The notes under the pieces were generated by a model, which was given only the letters and a program-made list of their open reading frames with translations, made no database searches and was not told the origin of the DNA. 64,000 nucleotides of DNA from a virus. Its lineage: Duplodnaviria > Heunggongvirae > Uroviricota > Caudoviricetes. The stretch lies in the IMG/VR virus record IMGVR_UViG_3300020045_006153, positions 115,550-179,549 of that record; one strand, 5' to 3'. This document shows positions 3,583-17,503 of the stretch, piece by piece. The translations under genes and the position numbers were made by a program. Numbering within the stretch: position 1 is the stretch's first letter; each line of letters opens with the position of its first letter.

Positions 3583-3638
3583 AGGATCAGTTCAGCAAAC
3601 TTAAAAATTCACTGTAAATGAAATCAAAGTTGATCCTG
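3583..3638 (+). ncRNA. CAGCAA-motif RNA copy 2 carrying Tyr-type anticodon stem-loop
   Basis: AGGATCA-GTT-CAGCAA ... TTCA-CTGTAAA-TGAA ... TGATCCTG. Confidence 0.75.
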
Positions 3639-3649
3639 TTATATTTTAA

Positions 3650-3723
3650 CTCCGTGTGGTGAAATGGTATCACTCTTGGTTTGGGACCAAGGAGCGTAGG
3701 TTCGATTCCTACTACGGAGACCA
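3650..3723 (+). tRNA. tRNA-Pro(TGG)
   Basis: Cloverleaf, loop TTTGGGA, ACCA. Confidence 0.92.
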
Positions 3724-3728
3724 CATTT

Positions 3729-3792
3729 AGGATGCTTCCAGCAAACTTCTAAAAAATCAAATTGAAACTTTGACACTAAGAAATGCATCCTG
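3729..3792 (+). ncRNA. CAGCAA-motif RNA copy 3 carrying Phe-type anticodon stem-loop
   Basis: AGGATGC-TTC-CAGCAA ... TCAAA-TTGAAAC-TTTGA ... GCATCCTG. Confidence 0.75.
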
Positions 3793-3803
3793 TTAGTTTT
3801 TAT

Positions 3804-3877
3804 TCGGGATTTGTGTAGTGGTAGCACAACAGACTTTGACTCTGTCGGTATAAGTTCGATTCTTATATCCCGTACCA
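3804..3877 (+). tRNA. tRNA-Gln(TTG)
   Basis: ACAGA-CTTTGAC-TCTGT, T-loop, ACCA. Confidence 0.88.
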
Positions 3878-3883
3878 ATATAT

Positions 3884-3958
3884 GCCATGGTAGGACTCTG
3901 GGAGTTTACCACACTGTCGATGTGATTTAGGCGGGTTCAATTCCCGTCCATGGCGCCA
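3884..3958 (+). tRNA. tRNA-Asp(GTC)
   Basis: GCCATGG/CCATGGC acceptor, loop CTGTCGA, GCCA. Confidence 0.82.
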
Positions 3959-4018
3959 AGTTTGAAGACGACAAGGTTACCTGCACCACAATGTCAAGCA
4001 GGACTTCAATTAGTTAAT

Positions 4019-4093
4019 GGGGGCAGCAGAGGGCTGCGGGTTTGCTTTGCAAGCATACTGACTAGAACGGTTCGATACCGTCGGCCTCCACCA
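4019..4093 (+). tRNA. tRNA-Ala(TGC)
   Basis: G3.U70, loop TTTGCAA, ACCA. Confidence 0.8.
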
Positions 4094-4099
4094 AAGTTA

Positions 4100-4157
4100 C
4101 GGGGCAACAAAGAGCAACTCTGTTAGAGTTCGTACAGCAAGTTAAAATGCCCCGCCA
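4100..4157 (+). ncRNA. Acceptor-minihelix RNA with permuted CAGCAA motif
   Basis: GGGGCA/TGCCCC-G-CCA enclosing AACTCTG-TT-AGAGTTC-GTA-CAGCAA. Confidence 0.65.
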
Positions 4158-4161
4158 ATAT

Positions 4162-4237
4162 GTCCCTGTCGTCTACCTGGTTAGGACGTCAGCCTTTCAA
4201 GTTGAAAAATCGGGTTCGAGACCCGATGGGGACGCCA
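4162..4237 (+). tRNA. tRNA-Glu(TTC)
   Basis: TCAGC-CTTTCAA-GTTGA, GCCA. Confidence 0.9.
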
Positions 4238-4243
4238 AGTTAT

Positions 4244-4338
4244 GGGGAAGATGCTCTAAGGTAGAGTAATATGCATTCTGCTTAGAATGTTTACTGCAAA
4301 AATCAAACTAATTGGTTCGATTCCAATCTTCTCCACCA
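4244..4338 (+). ncRNA. Anticodon-less tRNA-like RNA (Ala identity) with permuted motif in place of anticodon arm
   Basis: GGGGAAG/CTTCTCC (G3.U70, A73), D-arm, GCATTCTG-CTT-AGAATG-TTTA-CTGCAA, T-arm, CCA. Confidence 0.75.
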
Positions 4339-4343
4339 ATTAT

Positions 4344-4421
4344 GCGGGTATACAGTGCAAAGGGCGCACAGCAGATTTCCAATCTGAAGATCGCGGAGTT
4401 CGATTCTCCATACCCGCTCCA
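4344..4421 (+). tRNA. tRNA-Gly(TCC)
   Basis: GCGGGTA acceptor, loop TTTCCAA, TCCA. Confidence 0.88.
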
Positions 4422-4426
4422 ATTAT

Positions 4427-4490
4427 AGGATGCTTCCAGCAAACTTTATAAATTTCAAAACCATTATCTTTGAAAAGAAAAAGCATCCTG
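4427..4490 (+). ncRNA. CAGCAA-motif RNA copy 4
   Basis: AGGATGC-TTC-CAGCAA ... TTCAAA/TTTGAA hairpin ... GCATCCTG. Confidence 0.7.
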
Positions 4491-4499
4491 ATATTTTAT

Positions 4500-4577
4500 T
4501 CCGCAGAAGCCAAGTAAGGACAAGGCCGTGACTGTTAATCACTGTTTAAACTGGTTCGATTCCAGTGTGCGGAGCCA
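4500..4577 (+). tRNA. tRNA-Asn(GTT)
   Basis: GTGA-CTGTTAA-TCAC, GCCA. Confidence 0.85.
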
Positions 4578-4586
4578 AGTTAGTTA

Positions 4587-4662
4587 GGTCTCAAAGTGTT
4601 CATGGACGCACACGACACTGTCACTGTCGAAGAGTGGGGATCGTTACCCCCTGGGACCGCCA
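4587..4662 (+). tRNA. tRNA-Asp(GTC)
   Basis: CGACA-CTGTCAC-TGTCG, GCCA. Confidence 0.88.
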
Positions 4663-4669
4663 ATTTTAT

Positions 4670-4744
4670 GTCCCTTTAGTATAATGGATAATACACAACG
4701 CTACGAACGTTGGGATCCAGGTTCGATTCCTGGGAGGGGCTCCA
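4670..4744 (+). tRNA. tRNA-Arg(ACG)
   Basis: CAACG-CTACGAA-CGTTG, TCCA. Confidence 0.92.
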
Positions 4745-4748
4745 ACTT

Positions 4749-4822
4749 GCCTTTTTAGTTTAATGGTAGAGCACCGGTTTTGTATTCCGGGAATAGGGGT
4801 TCGATTCCTCTAAAAGGCACCA
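4749..4822 (+). tRNA. tRNA-Thr(TGT)
   Basis: GCCTTTT/AAAAGGC, loop TTTGTAT, ACCA. Confidence 0.88.
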
Positions 4823-4845
4823 TGTGTTAGTGAGACATCTTAGGT

Positions 4846-4918
4846 GTGGCCTTAGTGTAAAGGTTAAGCACCTCACTCTGTGAAAGTGATAGAATGGGAT
4901 CAATACCCATAGGTCACC
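4846..4918 (+). tRNA. tRNA-His(GTG), no encoded CCA, embedded in flanking stem
   Basis: TCACT-CTGTGAA-AGTGA; C73; flanked by ACATCTTAG/CTAAGATGT. Confidence 0.82.
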
Positions 4919-4934
4919 CCTAAGATGTTTATAT

Positions 4935-5008
4935 TCCCGGTTAATTAAATGGTATAATACTCGCCTGATAAGCGGAATTTACAAGTTCGATTCTTGTACT
5001 GGGAACCA
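4935..5008 (+). tRNA. tRNA-Ile(GAT)
   Basis: Loop CTGATAA, T-loop, ACCA. Confidence 0.85.
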
Positions 5009-5018
5009 TAAGTTTTAT

Positions 5019-5273
5019 TTCGTTATAGTGTAGAGGAAGGTAGAGTAGTATTGAGTAGGTGAGATAAGTCAGTTAGTAATTCAAAGTAGATAACAATCGC
5101 GTAGGCTTTAAAACCAAACACTGTGAGTCCGGGAAGTGCGGAACAGGTTGAAATGAATGAAGGGTGAGATAAGGCGCTGAGGGGATACGAGGGTAACTTT
5201 GGGAAACACACGGGGACCCAGCATACGCGATTTTAGCCCCGCATCGCAAGTTCGAGTCTTGCTGACGAAGCCA
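5019..5273 (+). ncRNA. 255-nt tRNA-like RNA (acceptor stem + T-arm + CCA, ~200-nt insert)
   Basis: TTCGTTA/TGACGAA-G-CCA; GCAAG-TTCGAGT-CTTGC; internal ATCGCGTA/TACGCGAT helix. Confidence 0.65.
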
Positions 5274-5279
5274 GTTTAT

Positions 5280-5373
5280 ATGTCTGTAGTTCAATGAGGT
5301 GCGCAAGTAATTCCTCGAAGTCAGAACGCCCTTGATCAGGGAGATGGAGGTTAGAGACCTTCTGGGCATGCCA
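5280..5373 (+). tRNA. Atypical tRNA with hairpin inserted in D-loop, 5-nt anticodon loop (TGATC)
   Basis: ATGTCTG/TGGGCAT-G-CCA; GTTC..GAAC D-stem enclosing GAGG..CCTC hairpin. Confidence 0.55.
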
Positions 5374-5378
5374 GTTTT

Positions 5379-5497
5379 AGGATGTTTACCGCAAACTTTA
5401 TCTTTATTCCAAACTAGTGGTCCGGTTCGATTCCGGCGTCCGATTCGGATGTGGTGTAATGGTAGCACACAAGTCCACAAGAGAAAACAGCATCCTG
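5379..5497 (+). ncRNA. Circularly permuted tRNA-Gly(TCC) bracketed by CAGCAA-type motif
   Basis: 3' half (nt33-73) 5407-5444 fused to 5' half (nt1-32) 5445-5475 inside AGGATG..CCGCAA / CATCCTG. Confidence 0.75.
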
Positions 5498-5506
5498 TTA
5501 TTTTAT

Positions 5507-5583
5507 GCCTTCGTACGCTAATTGGTAGTGCGGATAGTTTTAGAAACTGTTGGTTGGGGGTTCGAATCCGCCCGAAGGTACCA
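5507..5583 (+). tRNA. tRNA-Leu(TAG), short variable arm
   Basis: ATAGT-TTTAGAA-ACTGT, 5-nt variable loop, ACCA. Confidence 0.8.
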
Positions 5584-5590
5584 TAGTTAT

Positions 5591-5679
5591 TGGGGAGTGG
5601 TGAAATTGGTTAGCCACACTGGTCTTTGAAATCAGCGCCTGTAATGGGCATGTAGGTTCGACTCCTACCTCCTCAGCCA
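5591..5679 (+). tRNA. tRNA-Gln(TTG) with long variable arm
   Basis: U1-A72,G73; CTGGT-CTTTGAA-ATCAG; extra GCCT/GGGC arm. Confidence 0.8.
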
Positions 5680-5685
5680 AGTTAT

Positions 5686-5760
5686 ATCTTGTTAGTTTAA
5701 TGATTAGAACGCTAGCATTTTCGGCTAGTAATGCAGATTCGATCCTTGCACAAGATACCA
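5686..5760 (+). tRNA. Degenerate tRNA (anticodon TTT by position)
   Basis: CTAGC-ATTTTCG-GCTAG; imperfect T-arm; ACCA. Confidence 0.6.
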
Positions 5761-5865
5761 CAGAGTATAAGTAGTCCTAAGCAACCTGGACCCTGCTCAA
5801 ACGAACCAGCGTAACTGGGATGCGATACTTTCGCTTGAGAGGTTAGCCCTCACAGTAAGAATAAC

Positions 5866-5943
5866 GCCAGAGTAGCTCCAATTGCGTAGAGCAGCAGCCT
5901 GAAAAGTTGTGTGTTGTCGGTTCGAATCCGACCTTTGGTACCA
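5866..5943 (+). tRNA. tRNA-Phe(GAA)
   Basis: Loop CTGAAAA, ACCA. Confidence 0.9.
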
Positions 5944-5949
5944 TTTTAT

Positions 5950-6035
5950 GGATAGTTGTGCGCTGGCCGCAAGTTGGTTTGCTAAACCGATCCACTGCTA
6001 ACGCGGTGACAGTTCGATTCTGTATCTATCCTCCA
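5950..6035 (+). tRNA. tRNA-Ser(GCT)
   Basis: Loop TTGCTAA, long variable arm. Confidence 0.85.
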
Positions 6036-6042
6036 AGTTTAT

Positions 6043-6118
6043 GCACCTTTAGCTGATGTGGTCATAGTGGCGGTCTGAAGATCCGTTGAAGTTGGTTCGA
6101 TTCCAACAGGGTGCACCA
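6043..6118 (+). tRNA. tRNA-Phe(GAA)
   Basis: Loop CTGAAGA, ACCA. Confidence 0.85.
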
Positions 6119-6128
6119 AGTTAGTATT

Positions 6129-6202
6129 GCTCTTATCGTTAAATGGTAGGACACCTCTTTGGTAAGGAGGGAATAGAAGTTCGATTCTTCTTGAGAGCAC
6201 CA
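6129..6202 (+). tRNA. tRNA-Thr(GGT)
   Basis: CCTCT-TTGGTAA-GGAGG, ACCA. Confidence 0.9.
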
Positions 6203-6209
6203 AATTTAT

Positions 6210-6298
6210 GGGCTGGCGCCGTGGGACACGGCCGAAGTTGCAGTGATGTGACATGCGGAAAAGCGCTGAGAAGGTTCAACTCCTTTCCTAGTCCACCA
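6210..6298 (+). ncRNA. Aberrant tRNA-like RNA with Ala identity
   Basis: GGGCTGG/CTAGTCC (G3.U70) A73 CCA, T-loop TTCAACT, no canonical anticodon arm. Confidence 0.55.
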
Positions 6299-6300
6299 GA

Positions 6301-6476
6301 TTTTTGAGATAGACGAGGGAGTTATAGCATTGCCTAACAATGCTGAGTCGTAAGTAGCGGTGAATGTAGCAGGTCTAGTGCTACATTGACGGGTTTAACG
6401 TGAAAGAAACAAGATCTCCTCCCATCGAGACAACCCGTTGAGTCCCTTCAATAAGGATAGGCGGCCTCTCAAAAAA
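6301..6476 (+). ncRNA. Multi-helix structured RNA of unknown class
   Basis: TTTTTGAGA/TCTCAAAAA closing stem, hairpins AGCATTG/CAATGCT, AATGTAGCA/TGCTACATT, ACGGGTT/AACCCGT. Confidence 0.5.
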
Positions 6477-6675
6477 CTATTTGGGGTGAATGGTTAGAAG
6501 CGGGTTCGATTCCCGTATAGTCCACCATAAAGTATATCGCCTAGTCGACGAGGGTCAGGTCGTGCTTACTATAAGAAAGTAAGTTTTCCTGGCAGGTATA
6601 CTTCATAATGGGCTAGGTTGGATCCGCCTCCTAGGGGCATTGCAGGGTTCGATTCCCGCGCACTCCACCAAATAT

Positions 6676-6762
6676 GGATTATAGATGTGCTGGGCACTAA
6701 GCGGCTTCGAATACCGTTCCACTTAGAAATAGGTGATAGTTCGATTCTATTATAATCCGCCA
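6676..6762 (+). tRNA. tRNA-Ser(CGA)
   Basis: GGATTAT acceptor, loop TTCGAAT, long variable arm, GCCA. Confidence 0.75.
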
Positions 6763-6777
6763 ATAAATAAAGAATAT

Positions 6778-6867
6778 GGAGTGTAGAGTTCATGGTGAGC
6801 AAGCAGCCTTGAAAACTGTTCCACTGGTTAGTAGCCGGTGATGGTTCGATTCCATTACACTCCGCCA
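6778..6867 (+). tRNA. tRNA-Ser(TGA)
   Basis: Loop CTTGAAA, long variable arm, GCCA. Confidence 0.85.
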
Positions 6868-6873
6868 AAATAT

Positions 6874-6960
6874 GGAAGATAGAAGTGCTGGGCACTAAGC
6901 AACTTGGAAAGTTGTTCCACTGTGAAAACGGTGACAGTTCGATTCTGTTATCTTCCTCCA
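6874..6960 (+). tRNA. tRNA-Ser(GGA)
   Basis: GCAAC-TTGGAAA-GTTGT, long variable arm. Confidence 0.85.
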
Positions 6961-6966
6961 AATTAT

Positions 6967-7044
6967 AGTGCGGTGCCCGAGTGGTCCAAGGGAACTGATT
7001 GCAAACCAGTAAAACCGTGAGTTCAAATCTCACCCGCACTTCCA
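6967..7044 (+). tRNA. tRNA-Cys(GCA)
   Basis: Loop TTGCAAA, U73, CCA. Confidence 0.9.
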
Positions 7045-7049
7045 AATAT

Positions 7050-7125
7050 ACGTCGTTCTTCTAACTGGCAAGATAACGGACTCCAAATTCGTTTAATATA
7101 GGTTCGAATCCTATGCGGCGTGCCA
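7050..7125 (+). tRNA. tRNA-Trp(CCA)
   Basis: Loop CTCCAAA, GCCA. Confidence 0.88.
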
Positions 7126-7135
7126 ACATAAATAC

Positions 7136-7720
7136 GTGATGAGAATAACTGAACTTTTTGAATCACGTAGTGCTGATTTGTATCACGGTACAAATCTGTT
7201 AAAATTAAATAACATATTGCAAAGAAATATGTTTAAAGCAAGTGCATCTGTCCGCAGCGATATTGTACCGCATACGTTTAAAGGACATAGTAGAACTGTT
7301 TCTTTTTCTAGAGATCCGAATATGTCAGTTAACTTTGCTCGTTCTAAAGCAGGCGGGGAAGAAGGCATTAACGGTATACCAGTTGTCATTGTTGTGGATC
7401 AAAATAAATTATATCAAACTGTAGGTAGAAGAATGCAGGCATATAATGATCTTGCATTAACACATAATGGAACAGAAAGATCAAATGGCGGTAGTGAGTC
7501 TGAGGAAGTTGTTTTTGGAGACATAAATGATGCTAATGCTTTTATTAAAAAGATTATCATTCATATGCCCAAAAATGCAGGTAAAGACTTAACAAGTGCA
7601 TTGGCTAAATGCACTAATATCTTAGGTGATCCGCGTACTGTGATAGTAGATTTTCTAAATAAACCACTATCGGGTAAAGAATTCATCAATATAGCAAATA
7701 ATAATGTATCTCTAGTGTAA
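7136..7720 (+). CDS. ADP-ribosyltransferase-fold protein, putative virion-packaged
   Basis: LYHGT, VSFSRD, ESEEVV motifs; N-term MRITELFES; CATAAATA upstream. Confidence 0.6.
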   Translation: MMRITELFESRSADLYHGTNLLKLNNILQRNMFKASASVRSDIVPHTFKGHSRTVSFSRDPNMSVNFARSKAGGEEGINGIPVVIVVDQNKLYQTVGRRMQAYNDLALTHNGTERSNGGSESEEVVFGDINDANAFIKKIIIHMPKNAGKDLTSALAKCTNILGDPRTVIVDFLNKPLSGKEFINIANNNVSLV

Positions 7721-7779
7721 TGGCAGCATTCCGGTCTCCAAAACCGTCAGTCAAGGTTCGAGTCCTTGGAGGTACGCCA
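7706..7779 (+). tRNA. tRNA-Trp(CCA), overlapping upstream ORF end
   Basis: Loop CTCCAAA, T-loop TTCGAGT, GCCA. Confidence 0.9.
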
Positions 7780-7790
7780 TAAATATTGTT

Positions 7791-8327
7791 ATGAAATCTT
7801 TAAGACATTATATTAATTTAGTAGAGCAATCAGAGGATGACTACGTATATCACGGTGGATCATATGCAGGCGGAGAATATAATCCTAGCAAGGTGGGTGA
7901 ACCAGGTAATATTCGCCCACTAGGTGTAGGTATATATGCAGCCAAAACTCCTGAACATGCACAACTATATGTGAAATATGCAGGATCTAATGGTGCTGTT
8001 AAAAAATTTAAAGTTTCAAAAACTGCTAAATTATATCCATGGGGCGCTGATGCATGGAGTAAATTAACTCCTGCCGAAGCGGCACAATGGAGAGCAAAGT
8101 CTGCAGAAATTCAAACTGCATTTGAAAAAGCAAATTTAGTTAAATTTAATACTTTTAGAAAACAGTATAATCATTGGCAAGATGCAGTATCAGGATTTGG
8201 TGCATTTGATAAAGAACAAATGAGAAAGATTTTAGTATCAGTTGGAGTCGATGGCGCTAAACAAATTCTTAGCGACGACATGACTGAATTAGTGTTTTAT
8301 AACACTTCAGTGTTAACTCCGGTATAA
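7791..8327 (+). CDS. ADP-ribosyltransferase-fold protein (ART-PolyVal-like)
   Basis: VYHG, LGVGIYAA..A..Y, GVDG, ELVFY motifs; N-term MKSLRHYINLVE. Confidence 0.6.
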   Translation: MKSLRHYINLVEQSEDDYVYHGGSYAGGEYNPSKVGEPGNIRPLGVGIYAAKTPEHAQLYVKYAGSNGAVKKFKVSKTAKLYPWGADAWSKLTPAEAAQWRAKSAEIQTAFEKANLVKFNTFRKQYNHWQDAVSGFGAFDKEQMRKILVSVGVDGAKQILSDDMTELVFYNTSVLTPV

Positions 8328-8328
8328 T

Positions 8329-9057
8329 ATGAAAATCACAGAACTCATAACAGAACGCAGACAACAAAATATATCAGTTGTGTATCACGGTACATCTTCT
8401 AATTTTGTTAGATCTATTTTAAAAACAGGATTAAGTCCAGTGCCTCCAAAACGGTCGTGGGGTGATAGTGATAAGATGGGTGCTGATAAAGAAAGCCTTC
8501 CTGGAATATACTTAACTCCACGATTAGATTATGCTCAAACCGCAGCCAAACAGTCAGTGGAACTTAATGGCGGAACTCCGACTCTTATTACTGTACAATA
8601 CGTATCAGGAAGCGGAGGATTAGATGAAGATAATATCACTGGTATTGTGTGTTACGCTGTTTCAGAAGATTACGATGCATTTATAAAAGATTTTGATCAT
8701 CAATTTTTAGATATAATTAGTCGAGTTAAGGATCGATTAAAGAATACAGCATTGAATAATCGAAGTATTGAAATACTAAAACAATTAGTAAAAGTTGCGG
8801 TTAATATTACTTCAAAAAATTACGAAGAAGTTCAAGGAACTGAATTTCGATCAATATTATCTAATCCGCAGTTTAGACAATTACTGATAAAATTTACAGA
8901 ATCTGTTAAAGTTCACTCATCGGAAAATCCAGATTGGACTTCGGAACACATAAAAGTAACACGCATAATTGGTTTCAGCGGTAAGACGAAAATAGTTAAA
9001 ATCGAAGATTTAAAAACAAAAGCAGTGTACTATGAAAAGCATGAAGTCAGCCGCTAA
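8329..9057 (+). CDS. ART-fold protein, Tpt1/KptA-like first strand
   Basis: VYHGTSSNFVRSILKTGLSP, GIYLT..DYA; N-term MKITELITE. Confidence 0.6.
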   Translation: MKITELITERRQQNISVVYHGTSSNFVRSILKTGLSPVPPKRSWGDSDKMGADKESLPGIYLTPRLDYAQTAAKQSVELNGGTPTLITVQYVSGSGGLDEDNITGIVCYAVSEDYDAFIKDFDHQFLDIISRVKDRLKNTALNNRSIEILKQLVKVAVNITSKNYEEVQGTEFRSILSNPQFRQLLIKFTESVKVHSSENPDWTSEHIKVTRIIGFSGKTKIVKIEDLKTKAVYYEKHEVSR

Positions 9058-9226
9058 TTTTAAATTACGTGGAAAATTAAGAATGATGTGTCAATGTGGT
9101 TGTTGTGAAGTTTATAACCCTACATGGACAGAACGGTTAAAAGAAGCAAAGAAAGAAGTTGACAACTACTGTAACACGTTGTATAATAAACAAGAAGGAA
9201 AAGGCAATGAAGGCGAATTATCGTAA
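9032..9226 (+). CDS. Hypothetical protein (CxCGCC)
   Basis: ORF track, overlaps previous stop. Confidence 0.5.
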   Translation: MKSMKSAANFKLRGKLRMMCQCGCCEVYNPTWTERLKEAKKEVDNYCNTLYNKQEGKGNEGELS

Positions 9227-9350
9227 GTTAAATGATCATTCACACAGTTCGAGCACTTACCACAAGAAAGATGGCACACCAGTTCGTGCTATTTTAAAAG
9301 AAGAACTTAAGAAAGAAGTAAAGGCATTATATGAAGCGAAAATCCGCTAA
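9207..9350 (+). CDS. Small basic hypothetical protein
   Basis: In-frame ATG after sigma70 promoter at 9160-9190. Confidence 0.5.
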   Translation: MKANYRKLNDHSHSSSTYHKKDGTPVRAILKEELKKEVKALYEAKIR

Positions 9351-9422
9351 ACTATAGTGTCACACTAAACCCCATGTATGGTTTAAGGTGGCACGTAAAA
9401 GACAATTATCAATACGTAACAC

Positions 9423-9496
9423 CCACTGCAAACATTAAGGTGATGTACTAGGCTCTTACCCTAGGAAACACGGTTCAATACCGTGGCAGTGGACCA
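9423..9496 (+). tRNA. tRNA-Lys(CTT)
   Basis: CTAGG-CTCTTAC-CCTAG, ACCA. Confidence 0.88.
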
Positions 9497-9501
9497 TATA
9501 T

Positions 9502-9575
9502 GGGGTTCAAATTTTAAAGTGAAATATCTGGCTTTTAACCAGAAGAACACGGGGCAGTACCGTGGAGCCCTACCA
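9502..9575 (+). tRNA. tRNA-Lys(TTT)
   Basis: TCTGG-CTTTTAA-CCAGA; T-loop GGCAGTA; ACCA. Confidence 0.82.
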
Positions 9576-9694
9576 TATATAAGCATACTCGACGGCCTAA
9601 CACGGGCGCTTAAACCGTGTATCGAGAGACCAGAGATGTTGCTATCAGGAGTATGCTTATATATGGTATAAATAGTGTACAAGGAGTACAGTAT

Positions 9695-9928
9695 ATGACA
9701 GATATCAATAGTGCAATTACAGCCGCAGCAACTGATGCAATCTTAAGTGATGCAGTAGGTAAGAAGTGGTATGCATCTAAGACTTTTTGGGTTAATGTAA
9801 TTTCAGCAGCAACATTGCTTGCGCAAATACGTTATGGATTTATTATTGATCCAGCAACTCAAGCATTAATATTAACTGGAGTTAATATTGTATTGCGTAA
9901 AATTACAAAAGAATCAGTTACATTTTAA
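9695..9928 (+). CDS. Small membrane protein (holin-like), late promoter
   Basis: TATAAATA at 9667, AGGAG SD, KKWYASKTFWVN then hydrophobic helices. Confidence 0.55.
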   Translation: MTDINSAITAAATDAILSDAVGKKWYASKTFWVNVISAATLLAQIRYGFIIDPATQALILTGVNIVLRKITKESVTF

Positions 9929-10029
9929 TATGTAAAAATAATGCGCCGGGTTTGTTTATCCCGAGGAGTACACGGCTAGTGGAAGTGATTTAATTCATGG
10001 ACATCGAGGGAGCCTAACATAAACAATAT

Positions 10030-10104
10030 GCGGGTATGGTGCTAGTGGTAACACATAACTTTGCCAAAGTTAAATTACGAGTTCGATTCTCGTTACCCGC
10101 TCCA
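10030..10104 (+). tRNA. tRNA-Gly(GCC)
   Basis: Loop TTGCCAA, TCCA. Confidence 0.9.
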
Positions 10105-10108
10105 ATAT

Positions 10109-10183
10109 CGGTCTTTAGTGAAATGGATATCACCATTGTCTTCGAAACAGTAAGTAGAGGTTCGATTCCTCTAAGACCGGCCA
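10109..10183 (+). tRNA. tRNA-Arg(TCG)
   Basis: Loop CTTCGAA, GCCA. Confidence 0.9.
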
Positions 10184-10186
10184 AAT

Positions 10187-11114: not shown

Positions 11115-11174
11115 GTAGGAGACAACAGACTTAAAATCTGTACAGTACGGGTTCGAATCCCGTCTTGCGCACCA
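11097..11174 (+). tRNA. tRNA-Leu(TAA), short variable arm, overlapping ORF end
   Basis: ACAGA-CTTAAAA-TCTGT, ACCA. Confidence 0.88.
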
Positions 11175-11179
11175 ATTAA

Positions 11180-11252
11180 CCCGAGTGTCGTCTAGATCCG
11201 AAAAGAAGCCAGGCACATAGTGCTTGATCGCAACTGAGTAGACTCGGGACCA
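11180..11252 (+). ncRNA. CCA-ended non-cloverleaf RNA
   Basis: CCCGAGT/ACTCGGG-A-CCA; internal CAGGCAC/GTGCTTG hairpin; no T-loop. Confidence 0.5.
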
Positions 11253-11257
11253 TTATC

Positions 11258-11331
11258 GCCCTTTTCGTATAGTGTGAATACGTCTGTTTCGTAATCAGAA
11301 TACAGGAGTTAGATTCTTCTAAAGGGCACCA
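11258..11331 (+). tRNA. tRNA-Thr(CGT)
   Basis: Loop TTCGTAA, ACCA. Confidence 0.85.
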
Positions 11332-11336
11332 AAAAT

Positions 11337-11456
11337 GCAGACCTAGCTTAATGGTAGAGCACGTAGAAAGCGATCCTGATAAGGATACAATACAGCACTA
11401 CAAATCATTCCACTCACTAGGACGGGATCGTGGTTCGAATCCACGGGTCTGCACCA
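11337..11456 (+). ncRNA. tRNA body with permuted CAGCA motif inserted in anticodon arm
   Basis: GCAGACC/GGTCTGC-ACCA, D- and T-arms intact; ATCCTG-ATA-AGGATAC-AATA-CAGCAC insert. Confidence 0.75.
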
Positions 11457-11461
11457 AACAC

Positions 11462-11535
11462 GGTTCGTTAGTTCAATGGTAGAACACTGATTTGACTTGT
11501 CAGATACAAAGGTCCGATTCCTTTACGATCCACCA
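11462..11535 (+). tRNA. tRNA-Val(GAC)
   Basis: CTGAT-TTGACTT-GTCAG, ACCA. Confidence 0.82.
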
Positions 11536-11596
11536 TAATCATACTGTAATCATGGTAATTACTTAGAATAACTAAATATTGATATTGGGAGCATCA

Positions 11597-12646
11597 ATGT
11601 CAAAAGTACTTTTTATTTTAAAACGCCGCGAAGATTACAACGCAACACTTCATTCTGCAATTGGCATGAGCACAGGACTTTATAATTCTGCAAGTTTCAT
11701 GAATGCTATGTTAAACGAAAATGGTGTTGACTCTACTTTAGTAGTAGTAACTGATAATAACGATATTGATCGAGAAGTACGTAAGCATAACCCAACTCAT
11801 GTAATTATTGAAGCATTGTGGGTAGTACCAACAAAGTTTACTGTATTGAAAAAGTTACATCCTAATGTAACATGGGTTATTCGTGTACATTCTGAAATGC
11901 CATTTATGGCCGGCGAGGGCATGGCAATGGATTGGTTAGGAGATTACAGTGCTACAAAAAATGTAGTTATTGCAATGAACGCGCCTCGCATGTTACGTGA
12001 GGTACGTATGTTTTTACAACATAAGAATCAATGGAGTGACGAGGTTGCAAATAAAAAAGTAATTTACTTACCTAATTATTATCCTCATGGACATGTAACA
12101 AAGAAAATAGATAAGACTAAAGATACAATTGATATTGGATGTTTTGGAGCAGTTCGTCCATTAAAAAATCATCTTGTGCAAGCATTTGCTGCAATTGATT
12201 TTGCAAATCAAATTGGAAAAAAATTAAGATTCCACGTAAATGCTGGCCGAATTGAAATGCAAGGTGGGCCTGTATTAAATAACTTAAGATCATTGTTTGA
12301 ACATATATATGATCATGGTCATGAGATGATTAATCACGAATGGGCTCCTAGAGAGCAGTTTCTTGATGTTTGTGCTCAAATGGACATAGGATTGCAAGTA
12401 AGTTTCTCTGAAACATTTAATATTGTCGGTGCTGACTTACTTAGTCAAGGTGTTCCGTTGGTAGGAAGCACAGAAATTCCATTTTGTGCATGGCCATTCT
12501 GTGCTAACCCTACTGAGAGTGAGGATATTGTGCGTAAACTAAAGTTAGCATACTACTTTCCAGAAATAAATGTTGCAGTAAACAATTGGTTACTAACGCG
12601 ATACACTAATAAAACTGCATGTATTTGGACTAAATACTTCAAATAA
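11597..12646 (+). CDS. GT4-like (GT-B) glycosyltransferase
   Basis: IGCFGAVRPLKN, QVSFSETFNIVGAD..SQGVPLV motifs. Confidence 0.75.
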   Translation: MSKVLFILKRREDYNATLHSAIGMSTGLYNSASFMNAMLNENGVDSTLVVVTDNNDIDREVRKHNPTHVIIEALWVVPTKFTVLKKLHPNVTWVIRVHSEMPFMAGEGMAMDWLGDYSATKNVVIAMNAPRMLREVRMFLQHKNQWSDEVANKKVIYLPNYYPHGHVTKKIDKTKDTIDIGCFGAVRPLKNHLVQAFAAIDFANQIGKKLRFHVNAGRIEMQGGPVLNNLRSLFEHIYDHGHEMINHEWAPREQFLDVCAQMDIGLQVSFSETFNIVGADLLSQGVPLVGSTEIPFCAWPFCANPTESEDIVRKLKLAYYFPEINVAVNNWLLTRYTNKTACIWTKYFK

Positions 12647-12656
12647 GGACAATATT

Positions 12657-12860
12657 ATGCAACGTAAAAAAAATCAACGCCACAAAGTACATTTATTTAA
12701 ATGGAGCGGGAGCACCTTGAAGAAGATCGAGCACTGGTTCGAACATTTTGTAGATGCATTATTTTTTGCCAATTGTAGCGGCAGCACTGCGGTGAAGATT
12801 TATCATGATGACGATTTAGTACATAGTGGTAAACCTTGCGCGCCAGACGGATATGCTTAA
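12657..12860 (+). CDS. Hypothetical protein
   Basis: ORF with SD. Confidence 0.55.
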   Translation: MQRKKNQRHKVHLFKWSGSTLKKIEHWFEHFVDALFFANCSGSTAVKIYHDDDLVHSGKPCAPDGYA

Positions 12861-12886
12861 ATTAAATTGGTAAAACAATAAAATTA

Positions 12887-12976
12887 AAACCCTGTTTACT
12901 ATTGACAGGGTTTCTTATTTGTGCTACAATATATACATACAGCAAGCAATTACTGTATACACGCTCTTTAAAAATT
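12887..12976 (+). promoter_or_regulatory. Terminator hairpin overlapping sigma70 promoter, followed by boxA
   Basis: AAACCCTGT/ACAGGGTTT; TTGACA(12902)-17-TACAAT; CGCTCTTTAAAAATT at 12962. Confidence 0.75.
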
Positions 12977-12989
12977 AGTTAAAATATGT

Positions 12990-13064
12990 GCCCAGGAGAC
13001 CGAATGGGGAGGTAGCGCCTTGATAAGGCGTTTGTAGTCAGATCGAAACTGACTCTGGGTACCA
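12990..13064 (+). tRNA. tRNA-Ile(GAT)
   Basis: GCGCC-TTGATAA-GGCGT, ACCA. Confidence 0.85.
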
Positions 13065-13170
13065 TATTAGAGTACATTGTGTTGAGTATATGAATAACTG
13101 AGGAACCGTCGAACGAACCTTTTATATCATGTCGTTAGACTGCGGCCGCAGCAGTGTACTCTAATATGGT
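13061..13170 (+). ncRNA. Long-stem cassette RNA 2
   Basis: 19-bp IR ACCATATTAGAGTACATTG / CAGTGTACTCTAATATGGT. Confidence 0.5.
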
Positions 13171-13202
13171 AAGCAAGAGTAATTAACTTGCACCATTTAC
13201 GG

Positions 13203-13281
13203 GAGTCATGACCCGTAGGACTCGCGTAGTGTAATGGTTAGCACAGCAAAAATCTTTAGGTTCGATTCCTAAGCCTGGCCA
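13203..13281 (+). ncRNA. Scrambled tRNA/CAGCAA-motif hybrid
   Basis: GAGTCATG..AGGACTC, D-arm GTGTAATGGTTAGCAC, CAGCAAAAATC, T-arm, CCA; no anticodon arm. Confidence 0.45.
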
Positions 13282-13344
13282 ATATACAGGACGGTGTGTG
13301 ATGAGTAGCAAATGATGGTTCGAATCCATCCGCAATGAGTCTGC

Positions 13345-13448
13345 ATATTAAAGTAAACTAAGGTTACGCAGGAACCCTGCCACAGTAGATATACTGTGAA
13401 AGTTCAAGTAAATAAGATTCACCTAACGGGTACAGTTTATTTTAATAT
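13345..13448 (+). ncRNA. Long-stem cassette RNA 3
   Basis: 15-bp IR ATATTAAAGTAAACT / AGTTTATTTTAATAT. Confidence 0.5.
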
Positions 13449-13562
13449 GGTATGAGAGCCTTGCAACCGGCCCAAGTGTCTTGTATTGTTGTGGAGATAA
13501 AATACTTGAACGACCTAAGAGGGGCAGTGTCCACTACTCGTAATTTTGCTCATATCATAAAT

Positions 13563-13639
13563 GCGGATGTAACCGAATTGGTATAGGTACTGGTCTAAGA
13601 AGCCAGGTTTTGAGAGTTCGAGTCTCTCCATCCGCACCA
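13563..13639 (+). tRNA. tRNA-Leu(AAG), A34, short variable arm
   Basis: CTGGT-CTAAGAA-GCCAG, ACCA. Confidence 0.85.
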
Positions 13640-13673
13640 TATACCATAATTATTTTTAACACAAGGAAATGAA

Positions 13674-13901
13674 ATGACACTAGCACTTTGCTCGCAAAAA
13701 GCAGCCGAAATGGTTGGAAACAAGTTTGATCTGGTACTTATTGCCAGTGCACGAGCACGTGAATTGAAGCGTGGATACAAGGCATTAGTTCCTAATCCAA
13801 CTGGTCCTATTGTTACTGCGCTTCGTGAAATTGAAGAAGGCTTTGTTGGCCGTGAATATTTGAAGAAGAAGGTTGCACAGTCGCAATCGAATCGCAGATA
13901 A
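13674..13901 (+). CDS. rpoZ: RNA polymerase omega subunit
   Basis: GNKFDLVLIASARAREL..G..LV....IVTALREIEEG matches omega consensus; AGGAAA SD. Confidence 0.9.
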   Translation: MTLALCSQKAAEMVGNKFDLVLIASARARELKRGYKALVPNPTGPIVTALREIEEGFVGREYLKKKVAQSQSNRR

Positions 13902-14003
13902 CAGTTCTTGCAAGAAGTACAGGGGTACGGTGATCCAACGAAGCGGGGATTATAAAAGCCGATAAGTGCCCGGGGTAAAACTCCATACGCTTTCCCAACA
14001 TAT

Positions 14004-14093
14004 GCAAGCGAGACTTGGAGTCCGAGGAGTCTTATAAGCTCTTTCCGCCAGATTAGCGGCTTTGAGAGAGTTCGATTCTCTCCGCTTGTACCA
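14004..14093 (+). tRNA. tRNA with TAT (Ile) anticodon and long variable arm
   Basis: GGAGT-CTTATAA-GCTCT; CCGC/GCGG extra arm; short D-arm; ACCA. Confidence 0.75.
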
Positions 14094-14177
14094 AAATTTA
14101 ACAACAGCGTTTTATTGGAAATTCGATTCGTTTACGAATCTAACAGAATCCCGGCTACGGGATGTTAAATACTGCAT

Positions 14178-14252
14178 CTGGCGTTCGTATAATGGATAAT
14201 ACAGGGGATTTCTACTCCCTAAATAGGGGTTCGATTCCTCTACGCCGGACCA
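14178..14252 (+). tRNA. tRNA-Arg(TCT)
   Basis: GGGGA-TTTCTAC-TCCCT, ACCA. Confidence 0.9.
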
Positions 14253-14270
14253 CATATGTATAAATATTGA

Positions 14271-14744
14271 ATGCGAATTAACGAAGTTATAATAAAACCT
14301 GCTCCCACTATTGAACAAGTTATTGAGGCTATGGGTGCTTGGTTTGAAATGTGGCAAGCATCGAAACAAGTTCCGATCATTTTAGCATCGCCTGCGGCTG
14401 CAAAGTTCAAGCATGTTGAAGGGAATACATTATTTCGATGCGTAGTCCTTACTAAAACTGGAAATTTTAAAGCACCGAAAACTACTTCGTTGATTGCAAC
14501 ATATACCACTGATATTAATGCTGCTCATAAATTTTACAATAGTTTATATATTGATAATCCATATGTAATTGTACAGAAAAAACTTAATCCCGCCGATGTG
14601 GCATTAAATTTCACAGCATTTGCTAATAGTTTAGGTCAAAGTGGAGGATGGGATGAAAAAGAAATCTGGATGAAGGCTACTCCTTATTACAAAGATATAA
14701 ATCCCGAAGAAATAGTTTTTGATTCGAGATCAGATCATAGTTAA
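14271..14744 (+). CDS. ART-fold protein (R-S-E type), late promoter
   Basis: TLFRCV, ATYTTDINAAHKF, DEKEIW motifs; TATAAATA at 14259; N-term MRINEVII. Confidence 0.55.
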   Translation: MRINEVIIKPAPTIEQVIEAMGAWFEMWQASKQVPIILASPAAAKFKHVEGNTLFRCVVLTKTGNFKAPKTTSLIATYTTDINAAHKFYNSLYIDNPYVIVQKKLNPADVALNFTAFANSLGQSGGWDEKEIWMKATPYYKDINPEEIVFDSRSDHS

Positions 14745-14772
14745 ACATATTATTGATAGTGTGTTTAACTAT

Positions 14773-14875
14773 GGTGCGTGAGGTACGCAGGACGTCAACG
14801 TGTATATCCTAAGACATAGACAAAATATTGTGGCCACAATATGCGACTAGTTTTAGGTTAACTCATGCACCGCCA
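14773..14875 (+). ncRNA. CCA-ended rod-like RNA
   Basis: GGTGCGTGAG/CTCATGCACC-G-CCA; internal ATATTGTGG/CCACAATAT. Confidence 0.5.
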
Positions 14876-15187
14876 AATTTAATGTTAGATGAGTTAGTAA
14901 CCGAGACACCTCGTCGTTGTCCTAAACCATATAATGGTGAGTAAAGGCTGCTGGAAAACCGATAAATTCCTTCTCAGGATTTGCAGCGACAGACATTAAT
15001 TGAATTATAGTTATAACTATCTGAGGACTCAACGAAAGTGTAGTCGCTGCATAGTACGCCTTAACTATATAAGGGCAACGTGAAGGCCCTTGTTATTAGT
15101 AGTATCGCGAGGGGTTCCTGGCGATACGAACAAACTAAAGGAGCGCCGGATCTCCACAACTCTTTGACAATTATCAGACTAAATTGT

Positions 15188-15260
15188 CACTATATTGAAG
15201 CATTGGGTTCATTGCCCTCAGCGCGAAGACTAGAAAGTACTAGTATGCTTCAATATAGTG
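15188..15260 (+). ncRNA. Long-stem cassette RNA 4
   Basis: 16-bp perfect IR CACTATATTGAAGCAT / ATGCTTCAATATAGTG. Confidence 0.5.
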
Positions 15261-15421
15261 TGTTATGCGTCTGAAATGAAATCCCTTCGAAAAGGATTGA
15301 CAGTAGGATAAGAAAAGCAACGTGAAGATCGAAGATACCTGCCTCTGAAGCAGACGTATTCGAAAGGCTAACGTAAGTATATTGCAATGAAAGCGTTAGA
15401 GGCTTATAACAGACTAGTTTT

Positions 15422-15498
15422 GGTGCGGTAGTATTATTGGCAATACGCTATCCTCATAAGGTAGAATGAAGGGAGTTCGAATCTCCCCCGCACCACCA
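15422..15498 (+). tRNA. tRNA-Met(CAT)
   Basis: CTATC-CTCATAA-GGTAG, ACCA. Confidence 0.88.
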
Positions 15499-15632
15499 TA
15501 TATTAAAACACATTGCCCTACCCAAGGGGTAGCAGACAGTGGTTGGAAGGATCTGCTCGTTGCTGATCGCGTTGGATGCACTCGGGTTGCACCGATGCCA
15601 ACAGATAGTGATTGCAGTGTGTTTCAATATAT
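15498..15632 (+). ncRNA. Long-stem cassette RNA 5
   Basis: IR ATATATTAAAACACATTGC / GCAGTGTGTTTCAATATAT. Confidence 0.5.
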
Positions 15633-15709
15633 GCCCATTTACGCTAATTGGAAGTGCGGATTCTCTCAAAAGGAGTTGGCTCTCGGTTCGAATCCGAGAA
15701 TGGGTACCA
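15633..15709 (+). tRNA. tRNA-Leu(CAA), short variable arm
   Basis: Loop CTCAAAA, paralog of 5507 tRNA, ACCA. Confidence 0.82.
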
Positions 15710-15837
15710 AGTTTAAGCAGAGCCTGACTGAAACGGGCATGAGATGTGGTAATACAAGGCCGAAAGCACAAGGGTTCAATTCCCTAGCGTCTTATTTCAG
15801 TCTGCTTAATTAATTTTCACAATGTTGCATATAGTAG

Positions 15838-16009
15838 TTGACAAAGTGTTAAATAGACAGTATAATTAATACATACACTAAGCAGTTAGTGTATAAAATA
15901 TATGTGTTGAGCAATTGCCCACTGTTTTGTGGGATGAAGGTAATAAGAAAACTATTGGATACGTTCATTAGTAGAAATATCTTTAACACATATCGCTCAT
16001 TAAAAATTT
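15838..16009 (+). promoter_or_regulatory. sigma70 promoter with downstream boxA-like site
   Basis: TTGACA(15838)-17-TATAAT; CGCTCATTAAAAATTT at 15994. Confidence 0.65.
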
Positions 16010-16301
16010 AACGTATAAGAGTTCTTATACACATACGCACAACGAAGTTTGATCGGTAGCAAGGTGCATCAAACAACCTATGTCTACAGTGCGTATATGT
16101 ATAGTAATTTTTATACACATGCACATAAATGCACAGTACATGCAGATATAGATGGACATTAGCCCGGCATACAGTTGGGTAGGCAGGTTCGATTCCTGTG
16201 AATGTGCAGTTGTATAAGAATTACACTTAGCCTGGATATAGTTTAGGTATTAAGGTAGGGACACCTCCGTCGTGAAACGTCCTAAGTGTAGTAAGTATAA
16301 T

Positions 16302-16376
16302 GGGGGATTGGCGTAATTGGGAACGCAGTAGCTTTGCAAGCTTCAGTCAGGAGTTCGAATCTCCTATCCTCCACCA
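16302..16376 (+). tRNA. tRNA-Ala(TGC)
   Basis: G3.U70, loop TTTGCAA, ACCA. Confidence 0.92.
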
Positions 16377-16382
16377 ATTTAG

Positions 16383-16518
16383 TTGTTTTATAAAAGCAAT
16401 CTTAGACGGATAGAATCCTGCAATAATAACAGGGTGTCTCTTCGGTTCCTGGTAGGGCGAACGGTGGTTATGTGCCAGCATGTACTGCTTATATCTTAGT
16501 GCGCTTTTATAAAACAAT
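16383..16518 (+). ncRNA. Long-stem cassette RNA 6
   Basis: 15-bp perfect IR TTGTTTTATAAAAGC / GCTTTTATAAAACAA. Confidence 0.5.
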
Positions 16519-16522
16519 TTAT

Positions 16523-16596
16523 TGCGGGTAGGGCAGTCACCACACCGGTCTCATAAGCCAGGTGCATCGGCCGTGCGAATCGGTCACCCGCATCCA
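16523..16596 (+). tRNA. tRNA with CAT anticodon (Met or Ile2)
   Basis: TGCGGGT/ACCCGCA, loop CTCATAA. Confidence 0.78.
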
Positions 16597-16776
16597 AATA
16601 CGCGCAGAGTGATGCTCTGCTAGGAGTGAAACAATTGTCGGTGTAACCTCTGCGTAAGATTACTTAACGGTGCTTACCCATGTTACAGGACTTCTTCGAA
16701 TGTAACTACTAATCCTAGAGAAATGTTTCAGATGCGAAGGCACAATCAGGTGGAAAGCCTGTTCAAATTGTTAGTT

Positions 16777-16861
16777 GCCCTGGTGGCGAAATTGGTAGAC
16801 GCACCAGATTTAGGTTCTGGCGCCGCAAGGCGTGGGGGTTCGAGTCCCCCCTAGGGCACCA
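16777..16861 (+). tRNA. tRNA-Leu(TAG), canonical long arm
   Basis: Loop TTTAGGT, GCC-GCAA-GGC arm, ACCA. Confidence 0.95.
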
Positions 16862-16871
16862 AAAGATAGAA

Positions 16872-16961
16872 GGAACGGTCCCATAATGGTATTGGAGAAG
16901 ATTGCTAATCTTTCGATCGTAGTAATACGGTTTCTGAGTTCGAGTCTCAGTCGTTCCGCCA
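16872..16961 (+). tRNA. tRNA-Ser(GCT)
   Basis: Loop TTGCTAA, long arm, GCCA. Confidence 0.92.
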
Positions 16962-16968
16962 TAGTTAT

Positions 16969-17130
16969 GTTGCGAGTTTAGTCGAGTGCGCTATCTATAG
17001 TAACGCACAAAGGTAGGTACCTAAAGACTATCCATTAATTTGAAAATATTATGTAGTAACAGTAGGTTGACTAGTTAAAACTTTCTGCGGGGCATAATAA
17101 CCCAAGGTTCGATTCCCGGGCGCAACTCCA
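16969..17130 (+). ncRNA. 162-nt tRNA-like RNA (acceptor + T-loop + CCA, large insert)
   Basis: GTTGCG/CGCAAC-T-CCA; GG-TTCGATT-CC. Confidence 0.5.
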
Positions 17131-17152
17131 AATTTAGTTTATTTTAAGGAAA

Positions 17153-17356
17153 ATGATGTATATTAAACCAACGAAGACATTCGTGTTAAGCAAGCGTTCA
17201 AAGACAATCGGTGCATTGTCGAAATTCAGAAGTGAAGACTTGCGTCATGACTTCAAGAACGCGATGATTCAAGCAGAACTTGCTTCGGCAATTCGTCCTG
17301 CGAATAAGAAGACACGTGATGTGAATAATATGCCTGTGGCTGACACAGAGGCATAA
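17153..17356 (+). CDS. Small basic hypothetical protein
   Basis: AAGGAA SD, ORF track. Confidence 0.6.
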   Translation: MMYIKPTKTFVLSKRSKTIGALSKFRSEDLRHDFKNAMIQAELASAIRPANKKTRDVNNMPVADTEA

Positions 17357-17367
17357 GTAAAGTATAT

Positions 17368-17442
17368 TCCACAGTAGCACAGCGGTAGTGCAGGAGACTG
17401 TTAATCTCTTGGTCGTTGGTTCGATCCCAGCCTGTGGAGCCA
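17368..17442 (+). tRNA. tRNA-Asn(GTT)
   Basis: GGAGA-CTGTTAA-TCTCT, GCCA. Confidence 0.93.
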
Positions 17443-17447
17443 AATTT

Positions 17448-17503
17448 AGAATGCGTTCTGCAACCAAAACAATTCAACTTTTAATTGAAAAATAAGCATT
17501 CTG
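17448..17503 (+). ncRNA. CTGCAA-motif RNA copy carrying Lys-type anticodon stem-loop
   Basis: AGAATGC-GTT-CTGCAA ... TTCAA-CTTTTAA-TTGAA ... GCATTCTG. Confidence 0.75.

Follow-up and report, generated by a model that had tools for sequence, protein, structure and literature searches.

The stretch of DNA considered here (the window, 64,000 nucleotides (nt) read 5' to 3') corresponds to positions 115,550 to 179,549 of the IMG/VR record IMGVR_UViG_3300020045_006153 (G000:C1:115550-179549), a 353-kb, 99%-complete viral record of the Caudoviricetes. Its beginning is occupied by an array of 44 transfer RNA (tRNA) genes in about 17 kb, with one further tRNA gene at 35920 and with two perfect TTGACA-17-TATAAT promoter-like sites (2408–2436 and 2506–2534) directly 5' of the array. 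When the array was compared with deposited phages by megablast, a single 56-nt match resulted, to Ralstonia phage RsoM2USA, and at gathering score the Rfam search of the sequence matched solely tRNAs. The tRNA genes are interspersed with a repeated unit, in every case on the strand of the tRNAs, of the form ttttAGGATnn-n3-CAGCAA...A-rich...nnATCCTgtt, which we label the CAGCAA-handle RNAs and which is the subject of this work. The reading that we consider likely is that these are Y-RNA-like partners of a phage-encoded Ro60-like ring protein (DUF2828/DUF7788), on which they display parts of tRNAs, with anticodon arms displayed in about half of the short copies.

Eight open copies of 51–123 nt are present in the window, and the remainder of the 353-kb genome holds one more, a cargo-less copy 5' of the gene for the Ro60-like protein. 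Scanning IMG/VR with the 5' half of the motif alone gave 125 pattern matches at 120 loci. An exact 7-nt complement of the stem follows 30–270 nt downstream in 59 of these 125 matches (47%, vs. 1.5% by chance), with eight different dinucleotides at pairs 6–7 of the terminal stem (P1). Across 132 distinct copies the core AGGAT/ATCCT is almost invariant, apart from one compensated variant AGAAT/ATTCT, while five or six kinds of pair, G-U included, occur at pairs 6 and 7; GCAA begins at position 13 in 120 of the 132, the 3' strand is 62–77% A, and the flank 3' of the stem reads G (93%), T (85%), T (86%). The constant part consists of a terminal stem of 7–10 base pairs (bp), then (U)ACAGCAA as a single strand, a 3' strand rich in A and, last, the tail CUGU. 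The features by which we assign membership of the family are all found, namely a covarying closing stem of at least 7 bp, C(A/U)GCAA 3–5 nt past the 5' strand, a 3' strand rich in A with a G(U)U tail past the stem, and a DUF2828 gene to which the handle is coupled (see below). P1 is also predicted independently by RNAalifold on a MAFFT alignment. Because G-U pairs occur and the units are strictly co-oriented with the tRNAs, the pattern points to a structure that would act at the RNA level. A covariance model built from short copies recovers the six short array copies at 40–61 bits and the two long ones weakly (E 0.7–9).

The units might, rather than act in trans, be cis-acting elements of the tRNA operon, either processing spacers or internal promoters whose tail CCTGTTATATT resembles an extended −10 box. 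A tRNA does lie no more than 30 nt upstream of 71 of 112 short copies, and weak promoter-like matches with TG before the −10 box cover three copies. However, the promoter count (9, vs. 6.4 in shuffled sequence) is not above expectation, a −35 position would land in the variable interior, the copy in the DUF2828 leader lies away from any tRNA and its tail lacks a −10 box, and the covariation together with the G-U pairs indicates a folded RNA, so we judge this explanation very unlikely.

The interior of the handle, hereafter its cargo, is where the resemblance to tRNA lies. Three copies, starting at 3583, 3729 and 17448, contain at exactly 3608–3622, 3757–3773 and 17473–17489 the hairpins that a preliminary description of the window had singled out as isolated anticodon stem-loops. 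That description fits all three hairpins, with the reservation that the Tyr-like stem at 3608–3622 has only 4 bp; the full anticodon-arm module (5-bp stem, 7-nt loop, pyrimidine (Y) at position 32, U33 and purine (R) at position 37) is found in the other two. The loops also recur in resident tRNAs as had been claimed, CTGTAAA being the anticodon loop of both tRNA-Tyr genes (3086 and 3324) and CTTTTAA the canonical loop, read by eye, of a tRNA-Lys(UUU)-like gene near 9502 (about 9502–9575) that has an unusual T loop and is called by neither ARAGORN nor Rfam. The tRNA-Lys(UUU) called at 5686–5760 has an odd anticodon loop, ATTTTCG (A32, C37). The copies at 3255 and 4427 had both been set aside as non-canonical, which is correct for 4427 with its 9-nt loop but not for 3255, whose loop TTAATAT on an 8-bp stem is formally Y-U-NNN-R. 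None of the short copies is called a tRNA by ARAGORN or Rfam; they do not form the RF00005 cloverleaf and hold a single hairpin inside P1.

Evidence that these loops are not incidental comes from 93 distinct short copies (at most 72 nt) from this genome and 56 metagenomic phage contigs, which were collected blind to their interiors. From the part of each copy that lies between CAGCAA and the 3' arm, the hairpin of lowest energy was taken, and shuffled interiors served as the control. The loop is 7 nt long in 57 of the 93 copies (7.6 when shuffled), U occupies loop position 2 in 54 (2.1 when shuffled), and the complete Y-U-NNN-R pattern is found in 46 (0.5 when shuffled), so that the enrichment across phages anticipated in the preliminary description is indeed strong. 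In the genome background, 5-bp hairpins show a flat spread of loop lengths, with 10% at 7 nt and 8.3% of those being Y-U-NNN-R. Since the copies are mutually related, their interiors were clustered into lineages, giving 28, of which 14 are mostly 7-nt and 11 mostly canonical. Taken with the anatomy of the copies, these family-wide loop statistics support the earlier proposal of small RNAs in which a loop of the anticodon type is shown with no acceptor stem attached.

The displays in the three copies named above and in about half of the short copies share a stem of 4–5 bp, a 7-nt loop, C/U32, U33, A37 and A/C38. Of 36 distinct stem-loop 17-mers, 34 have C/U32, 34 have U33, 32 have A37 and 33 have A/C38, with positions 34 and 35 the most variable. 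In these 17-mers 71 stem cells are changed on both sides yet still pair (19.9 when shuffled) and 97.8% of cells pair; the set was picked on its hairpins and thus selected for pairing, so this count is descriptive only and the interior-shuffle test on the 93 copies is the fair one. Lys UUU (loop CTTTTAA) is displayed most often, its loop being found on 9 different stems in 23 contigs. Of the 23 loop 7-mers, 12 recur unchanged as the anticodon loops of bona fide tRNAs whose genes the same contigs carry (Lys, Tyr, Asn, Thr, Ser, Phe, Ile and Met). All 36 displays have U or A at position 36, vs. 297 of 545 real phage tRNAs (Fisher 1e-9), and the displayed anticodons are only those for codons starting with A or U. 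These are the codon classes whose real tRNAs carry a hypermodified A37. One backbone, TTCAA-CUNNUAA-TTGAA, is found with UUU, UGU, GUU and CGU, and within lineages the anticodon letters vary while the loop frame stays.

In the longer copies of the family (85–135 nt) the frame holds circularly permuted tRNA parts, namely a hairpin that varies, a T arm containing GGTTCGA, an acceptor stem that a 4–5 nt loop closes (in one long copy this loop consists of CCA and one more base) and a D arm; a canonical anticodon arm, e.g., CTTGAAA, CTGAAAA or CTCGTAA, is added in some of them. Because these copies contain circularly permuted tRNA bodies, the cargo of the handle is tRNA-derived. Three further elements in the window carry the handle closed by a loop of 3–6 nt, one on an acceptor minihelix and two on tRNA-like bodies that lack a normal anticodon arm, and they are best described as circular rotations of the same "tRNA part + handle" design. 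With tRNA parts present in both long and rotated copies, the short copies are the smallest members of a modular series in which tRNA parts are set on a handle; since many other cargoes occur on the same handle, anticodon display is one option of this modular family. A permuted working tRNA or a two-piece tRNA was considered for the short copies and rejected, as they have no acceptor stem; it might apply only to the rare long CCA-carrying copies in other contigs (L017). All elements of the window are collected in Table 1.

Table 1. CAGCAA-handle RNAs and their rotated forms in the window (positions in the window, 1 being its first letter).
Feature	Position	Strand	Remarks
Handle RNA, Tyr-like anticodon-arm cargo	3583..3637	+	Hairpin 3608-3622 TTCA-CTGTAAA-TGAA; P1 AGGATCA/TGATCCT; covariance model R1, 61 bits
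Handle RNA, Phe-like cargo	3729..3791	+	Hairpin 3757-3773 TCAAA-TTGAAAC-TTTGA; P1 AGGATGC/GCATCCT; hairpin present in the minimum-energy fold
Handle RNA, Lys(UUU)-like cargo	17448..17502	+	Hairpin 17473-17489 TTCAA-CTTTTAA-TTGAA; P1 compensated variant AGAATGC/GCATTCT; RF01414 at 31.5 bits, below threshold
Handle RNA, 8-bp hairpin cargo with 7-nt loop TTAATAT	3255..3313	+	RF01414 at 30.9 bits, with alignment
Handle RNA, 7-bp hairpin cargo with 9-nt loop ACCATTATC, non-anticodon-like	4427..4489	+	
Handle RNA, weak cargo pairing CTTT-CATATGTAATA-AAAG	19067..19117	+	
Long handle RNA, circularly permuted tRNA-like body (T arm, end-to-end acceptor stem without a free CCA end, D arm)	5379..5496	+	
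Long handle RNA, 123-nt cargo	17594..17716	+	Akin to copies that in other phages (L050, L154) lie 5' of the Ro60-like gene
Rotated form, CCA-ended acceptor minihelix around the closed handle	4100..4157	+	AACTCT-GTT-AGAGTT, then GTACAGCAA
Rotated form, CCA-ended tRNA-like RNA with the closed handle as anticodon arm	4244..4338	+	GCATTCTGCTTAGAATG, then TTTACTGCAA; weak transfer-messenger RNA (tmRNA) model match, 23.4 bits
Rotated form, CCA-ended tRNA-like RNA with the closed handle at the place of the anticodon arm	11337..11456	+	ATCCT-GATA-AGGAT, then ACAATACAGCAC

The cargo of the long copy at 17594 has a conserved 3' block, GAGTTTCGA...AAAAAGTAGACAAC, in common with L050:3055-3217 and L154:2304-2411, which lie just 5' of the Ro60-like gene. 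In these contigs larger cargo classes recur, of about 160 nt and about 240 nt.

Over the loci L001–L120 and the window, no conserved tRNA neighbors were found for any cargo type, and the order Asn-[Lys display]-Thr of the window is not conserved, so the units are shuffled within the arrays. The conserved ends of the handle could serve as recombination points. An explanation at the DNA level, in which the units are attC-like recombination sites, or one in which they are donor pieces for tRNA repair or trans-splicing, would draw on this shuffling among tRNA neighbors, on the attC-resembling layout of inverted repeat ends around a variable center, on the rotated forms in the window and on an Rnl2-type RNA ligase encoded there (26586–27647 (+), an open reading frame of 353 amino acids with domain PF09414 at 99.8 bits). 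Against it, the units are strand-specific with G-U pairs and have no linked recombinase, the cargo consists of sense-strand tRNA parts, and conserved sites for breakage or joining are lacking in the loops. Neither RtcB nor Rnl1 was detected in the genome, the absence of Rnl1 being weak since its control search was also empty. We regard this explanation as scarcely credible, and the trans-splicing donors suggested in the preliminary description in particular find no support, since one such ligase is present with no sign of defined sites at which breaks or joining would occur.

The second line of evidence concerns the protein. The cargo-less handle outside the window (G000:103161-103194, AGGTTA-tat-ACAGCAA-12 nt-TAACCT) is the best match of the covariance model in the 353 kb outside the array, and it ends 13 nt 5' of the ATG of a 465-amino-acid open reading frame with domains DUF2828 and DUF7788 (G000:103208-104605). 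This gene has a promoter-like site 5' of the leader handle and a terminator-like hairpin at its end. An AlphaFold model of the protein (mean predicted local distance difference test score, pLDDT, 75.8) has its best structural matches in Ro60/TROVE proteins (E 4e-10 to 1e-6, template modeling (TM) score 0.5–0.6), among them phiLo phage Ro60 (9kop, 9l5y) and Xenopus Ro60 (1yvp, 2i91), and a Ro60 fold is thus shown at the level of the predicted structure. The conserved D270-x-S272-x-S274 in its von Willebrand factor A (vWA) domain is read as a putative MIDAS motif (metal ion-dependent adhesion site).

The genomic coupling of the handle to this gene, which the preliminary description of the hairpins did not consider, is general. 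When 80 loci were retrieved via the protein alone, 77 had sufficient upstream sequence, and in 74 of the 77 a handle ends 0–120 nt before the start codon, mostly at 20–25 nt, whereas the background of the handle detector inside the coding region is 0.07 per stretch of equal length. Because the handle sits on the ribosome-binding region of the DUF2828 gene, the arrangement suggests that the protein may bind the leader handle and limit its own synthesis, i.e., autoregulation.

Many leader copies 5' of the Ro60-like gene (L156–L171) have loops of 8–9 nt centered on CAT then A (TTTCATAAT, ATTCATAAA, AAGCATATC), and in some of these the inner seven bases are readable as a Met-type loop flanked by a mismatch. 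In the genes flanking the Ro60-like gene no informative family was found. About 500 nt 3' of the gene is a strong match to the Polynucleobacter-1 RNA (RF01718; L128:6092-6237 = G000:C1:105092-105237, outside the window; 96.7 bits vs. a gathering score of 37), a match that may hint at a freshwater betaproteobacterial host.

The combination of handle and protein resembles Ro60 (Rsr) and its Y RNAs, especially YrlA of bacteria and phages (RF02553; PMC4201824) and the Ro60 of Thermus phage phiLo with Yrl1 and Yrl2 (PMC12135203), in that a small RNA has a terminal stem carrying a protein-binding site (putative here), is encoded beside a ring-shaped protein of HEAT repeats and a vWA domain (here a predicted fold), and has a variable module that mimics tRNA. 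An "anticodon arm" with a 6-nt loop is known from Yrn1 of Deinococcus radiodurans (PMC4201824). There are also clear differences: the handle is ACAGCAA here and a CGAA bulge in the phiLo Yrl RNAs (PMC12135203), the protein is DUF2828/DUF7788 and not Pfam TROVE, and, unlike YrlA, the short copies have the anticodon arm only, without T or D arm, and many copies are dispersed in a tRNA array.

The nearest Rfam model is that of the Dictyostelium Class I RNAs (RF01414), which five window copies match over their full length at 20–31.5 bits (gathering score 41.5; best E 0.00012–0.0035); with the E-value relaxed, the copies gave only these below-threshold Class I matches and none to a ribozyme or YrlA. 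Class I RNAs are likewise 42–65 nt long with a short covarying terminal stem, a variable interior, an A-rich 3' part and a CUGU end, and have directly past the 5' strand an 11-nt motif ending in UACAGCAA, as is also found here; unlike the handle RNAs, they are products of a eukaryotic polymerase with their own promoter element DUSE, have the RRM protein Rnp1A as reported partner and have no described tRNA-like cargo (PMC7919456). A literature search found no description of a CAGCAA-handle RNA family or of a function for DUF2828, and the family was not found in Rfam.

From this anatomy and context we propose the following. The handle RNAs would be transcribed together with the tRNA array and probably cut free by tRNA-processing enzymes, after which the handle would most likely dock on the phage Ro60-shaped ring (DUF2828/DUF7788, vWA/MIDAS) as Y RNAs dock on Ro60. 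The exposed cargo would then mimic a piece of tRNA, and a displayed arm would interact with a protein able to read anticodon loops. That protein may be a host anticodon nuclease, with the arm serving as bait or decoy, or an enzyme of tRNA modification or repair that is recruited to the ring.

Several observations weigh against this reading as a partner of a Ro60-like ring that shows anticodon arms. The Pfam TROVE profile has no match in the genome, the DUF2828 protein included, and the YrlA model matches no copy, its sole match (16.4 bits, E 6.8) falling over tRNA genes. Roughly half of the short copies hold other hairpins (TTTTGGTT-type loops, 9-nt loops and 5-nt loops), position 37 is C or U in some lineages (TTTATCC, TTCATTC), and among distinct copies 5' of the protein gene a canonical loop is found in only 6 of 62, the other 56 having other cargo. 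The cargo hairpins are AU-rich (22% GC, where real anticodon stems have 61%), and at 37°C they are marginal (mean ΔG +0.14 kcal/mol), though stable at 20°C. Finally, RNAalifold recovered P1 only; the cargo hairpin escaped it owing to AU-rich stems whose register shifts between lineages, and the hairpins were therefore anchored on their loops.

Part of this variability would be expected if the cargo had no anticodon-specific function, i.e., if the RNAs were partners of the Ro60-like protein in which a tRNA-derived hairpin serves as a spacer or generic effector arm and the loop is simply inherited. The many cargo types on one handle, the non-purine 37 in some lineages, the weak stems and the free variation of anticodon letters within a lineage are all in line with this. 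It seems rather unlikely to us, as positions 32, 33, 37 and 38 remain tRNA-like while the stems covary and 34–35 vary, as position 36 keeps the U/A restriction given above, and as unused inherited loops would be expected to decay in length and sequence.

In favor of a bait for anticodon-reading enzymes, Lys UUU is by far the commonest display. tRNA-Lys(UUU) is the target of both PrrC (PMC1484252) and PARIS AriB (PMC12409363), and PrrC reads mainly its anticodon stem-loop (PMC1484252). The four anticodons met on the TTCAA..TTGAA backbone are the four reported AriB substrates, all of which keep U36-A-A-U39 (PMC12409363). This match was noticed post hoc, however, and the loops concerned are one mutation apart; moreover, AriB requires D-loop contacts in addition to U36-A-A-U39 (PMC12409363), and these are missing from a bare arm.

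The same facts bear on two proposals. In the first, the hairpin RNAs alone would absorb anticodon nucleases or modification enzymes, with the frame as a protective stem and with no part for a Ro60-like protein. A decoy function of the handle RNAs, as put forward in the preliminary description, is compatible with the data, yet in this free-standing form we hold it to be decidedly unlikely, since the conservation of ACAGCAA and of the CUGU tail exceeds what a protective stem needs, the handle is coupled to DUF2828 at nearly every protein-anchored locus, and non-anticodon cargo occurs on the same frame.

In the second, ring and handle RNA together would form a programmable bait particle that captures host anticodon-directed nucleases (PARIS AriB, PrrC/RloC, Cas13-type) and then sequesters them or passes them to an exonuclease, the displayed anticodon (Lys UUU, Thr UGU/CGU, Asn GUU, Tyr GUA and others) being retuned by single base changes to follow host defenses. 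The change of anticodon letters within a lineage while the loop frame is kept speaks for such retuning; the weak AU-rich stems, the other cargo in half of the short copies and the pyrimidine at position 37 in some lineages speak against it, and we offer this specific version of the preferred Ro60-like reading as a possible but doubtful one.

Bacteria commonly defend themselves against phages by cutting tRNAs in the anticodon loop. The phage answer to it that is documented in the literature consulted is the supply of resistant replacement tRNAs, as in T5 against PARIS (PMC11464382, PMC12409363). The T5 tRNAs for Lys, Thr and Asn resemble the present case in being part of a phage tRNA array and in sharing the anticodons Lys UUU, Thr UGU and Asn GUU, and differ in being complete, chargeable, cleavage-resistant molecules that replace cut host tRNAs (PMC11464382, PMC12409363); the short handle RNAs have no acceptor, D or T arms and therefore take no part in decoding. 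The small size of the handle RNAs and their modular build, in which the cargo can be swapped on an unchanging handle, make the hypothesis directly testable. If it is true, an abundant, conserved group of phage RNAs with bare anticodon arms mounted on a handle of the Ro60 kind would amount to a third type of phage answer, or else a new job for a Ro60-like particle, the very widespread DUF2828 family would gain a testable function, and some light may possibly be shed on the Class I RNAs of social amoebae.

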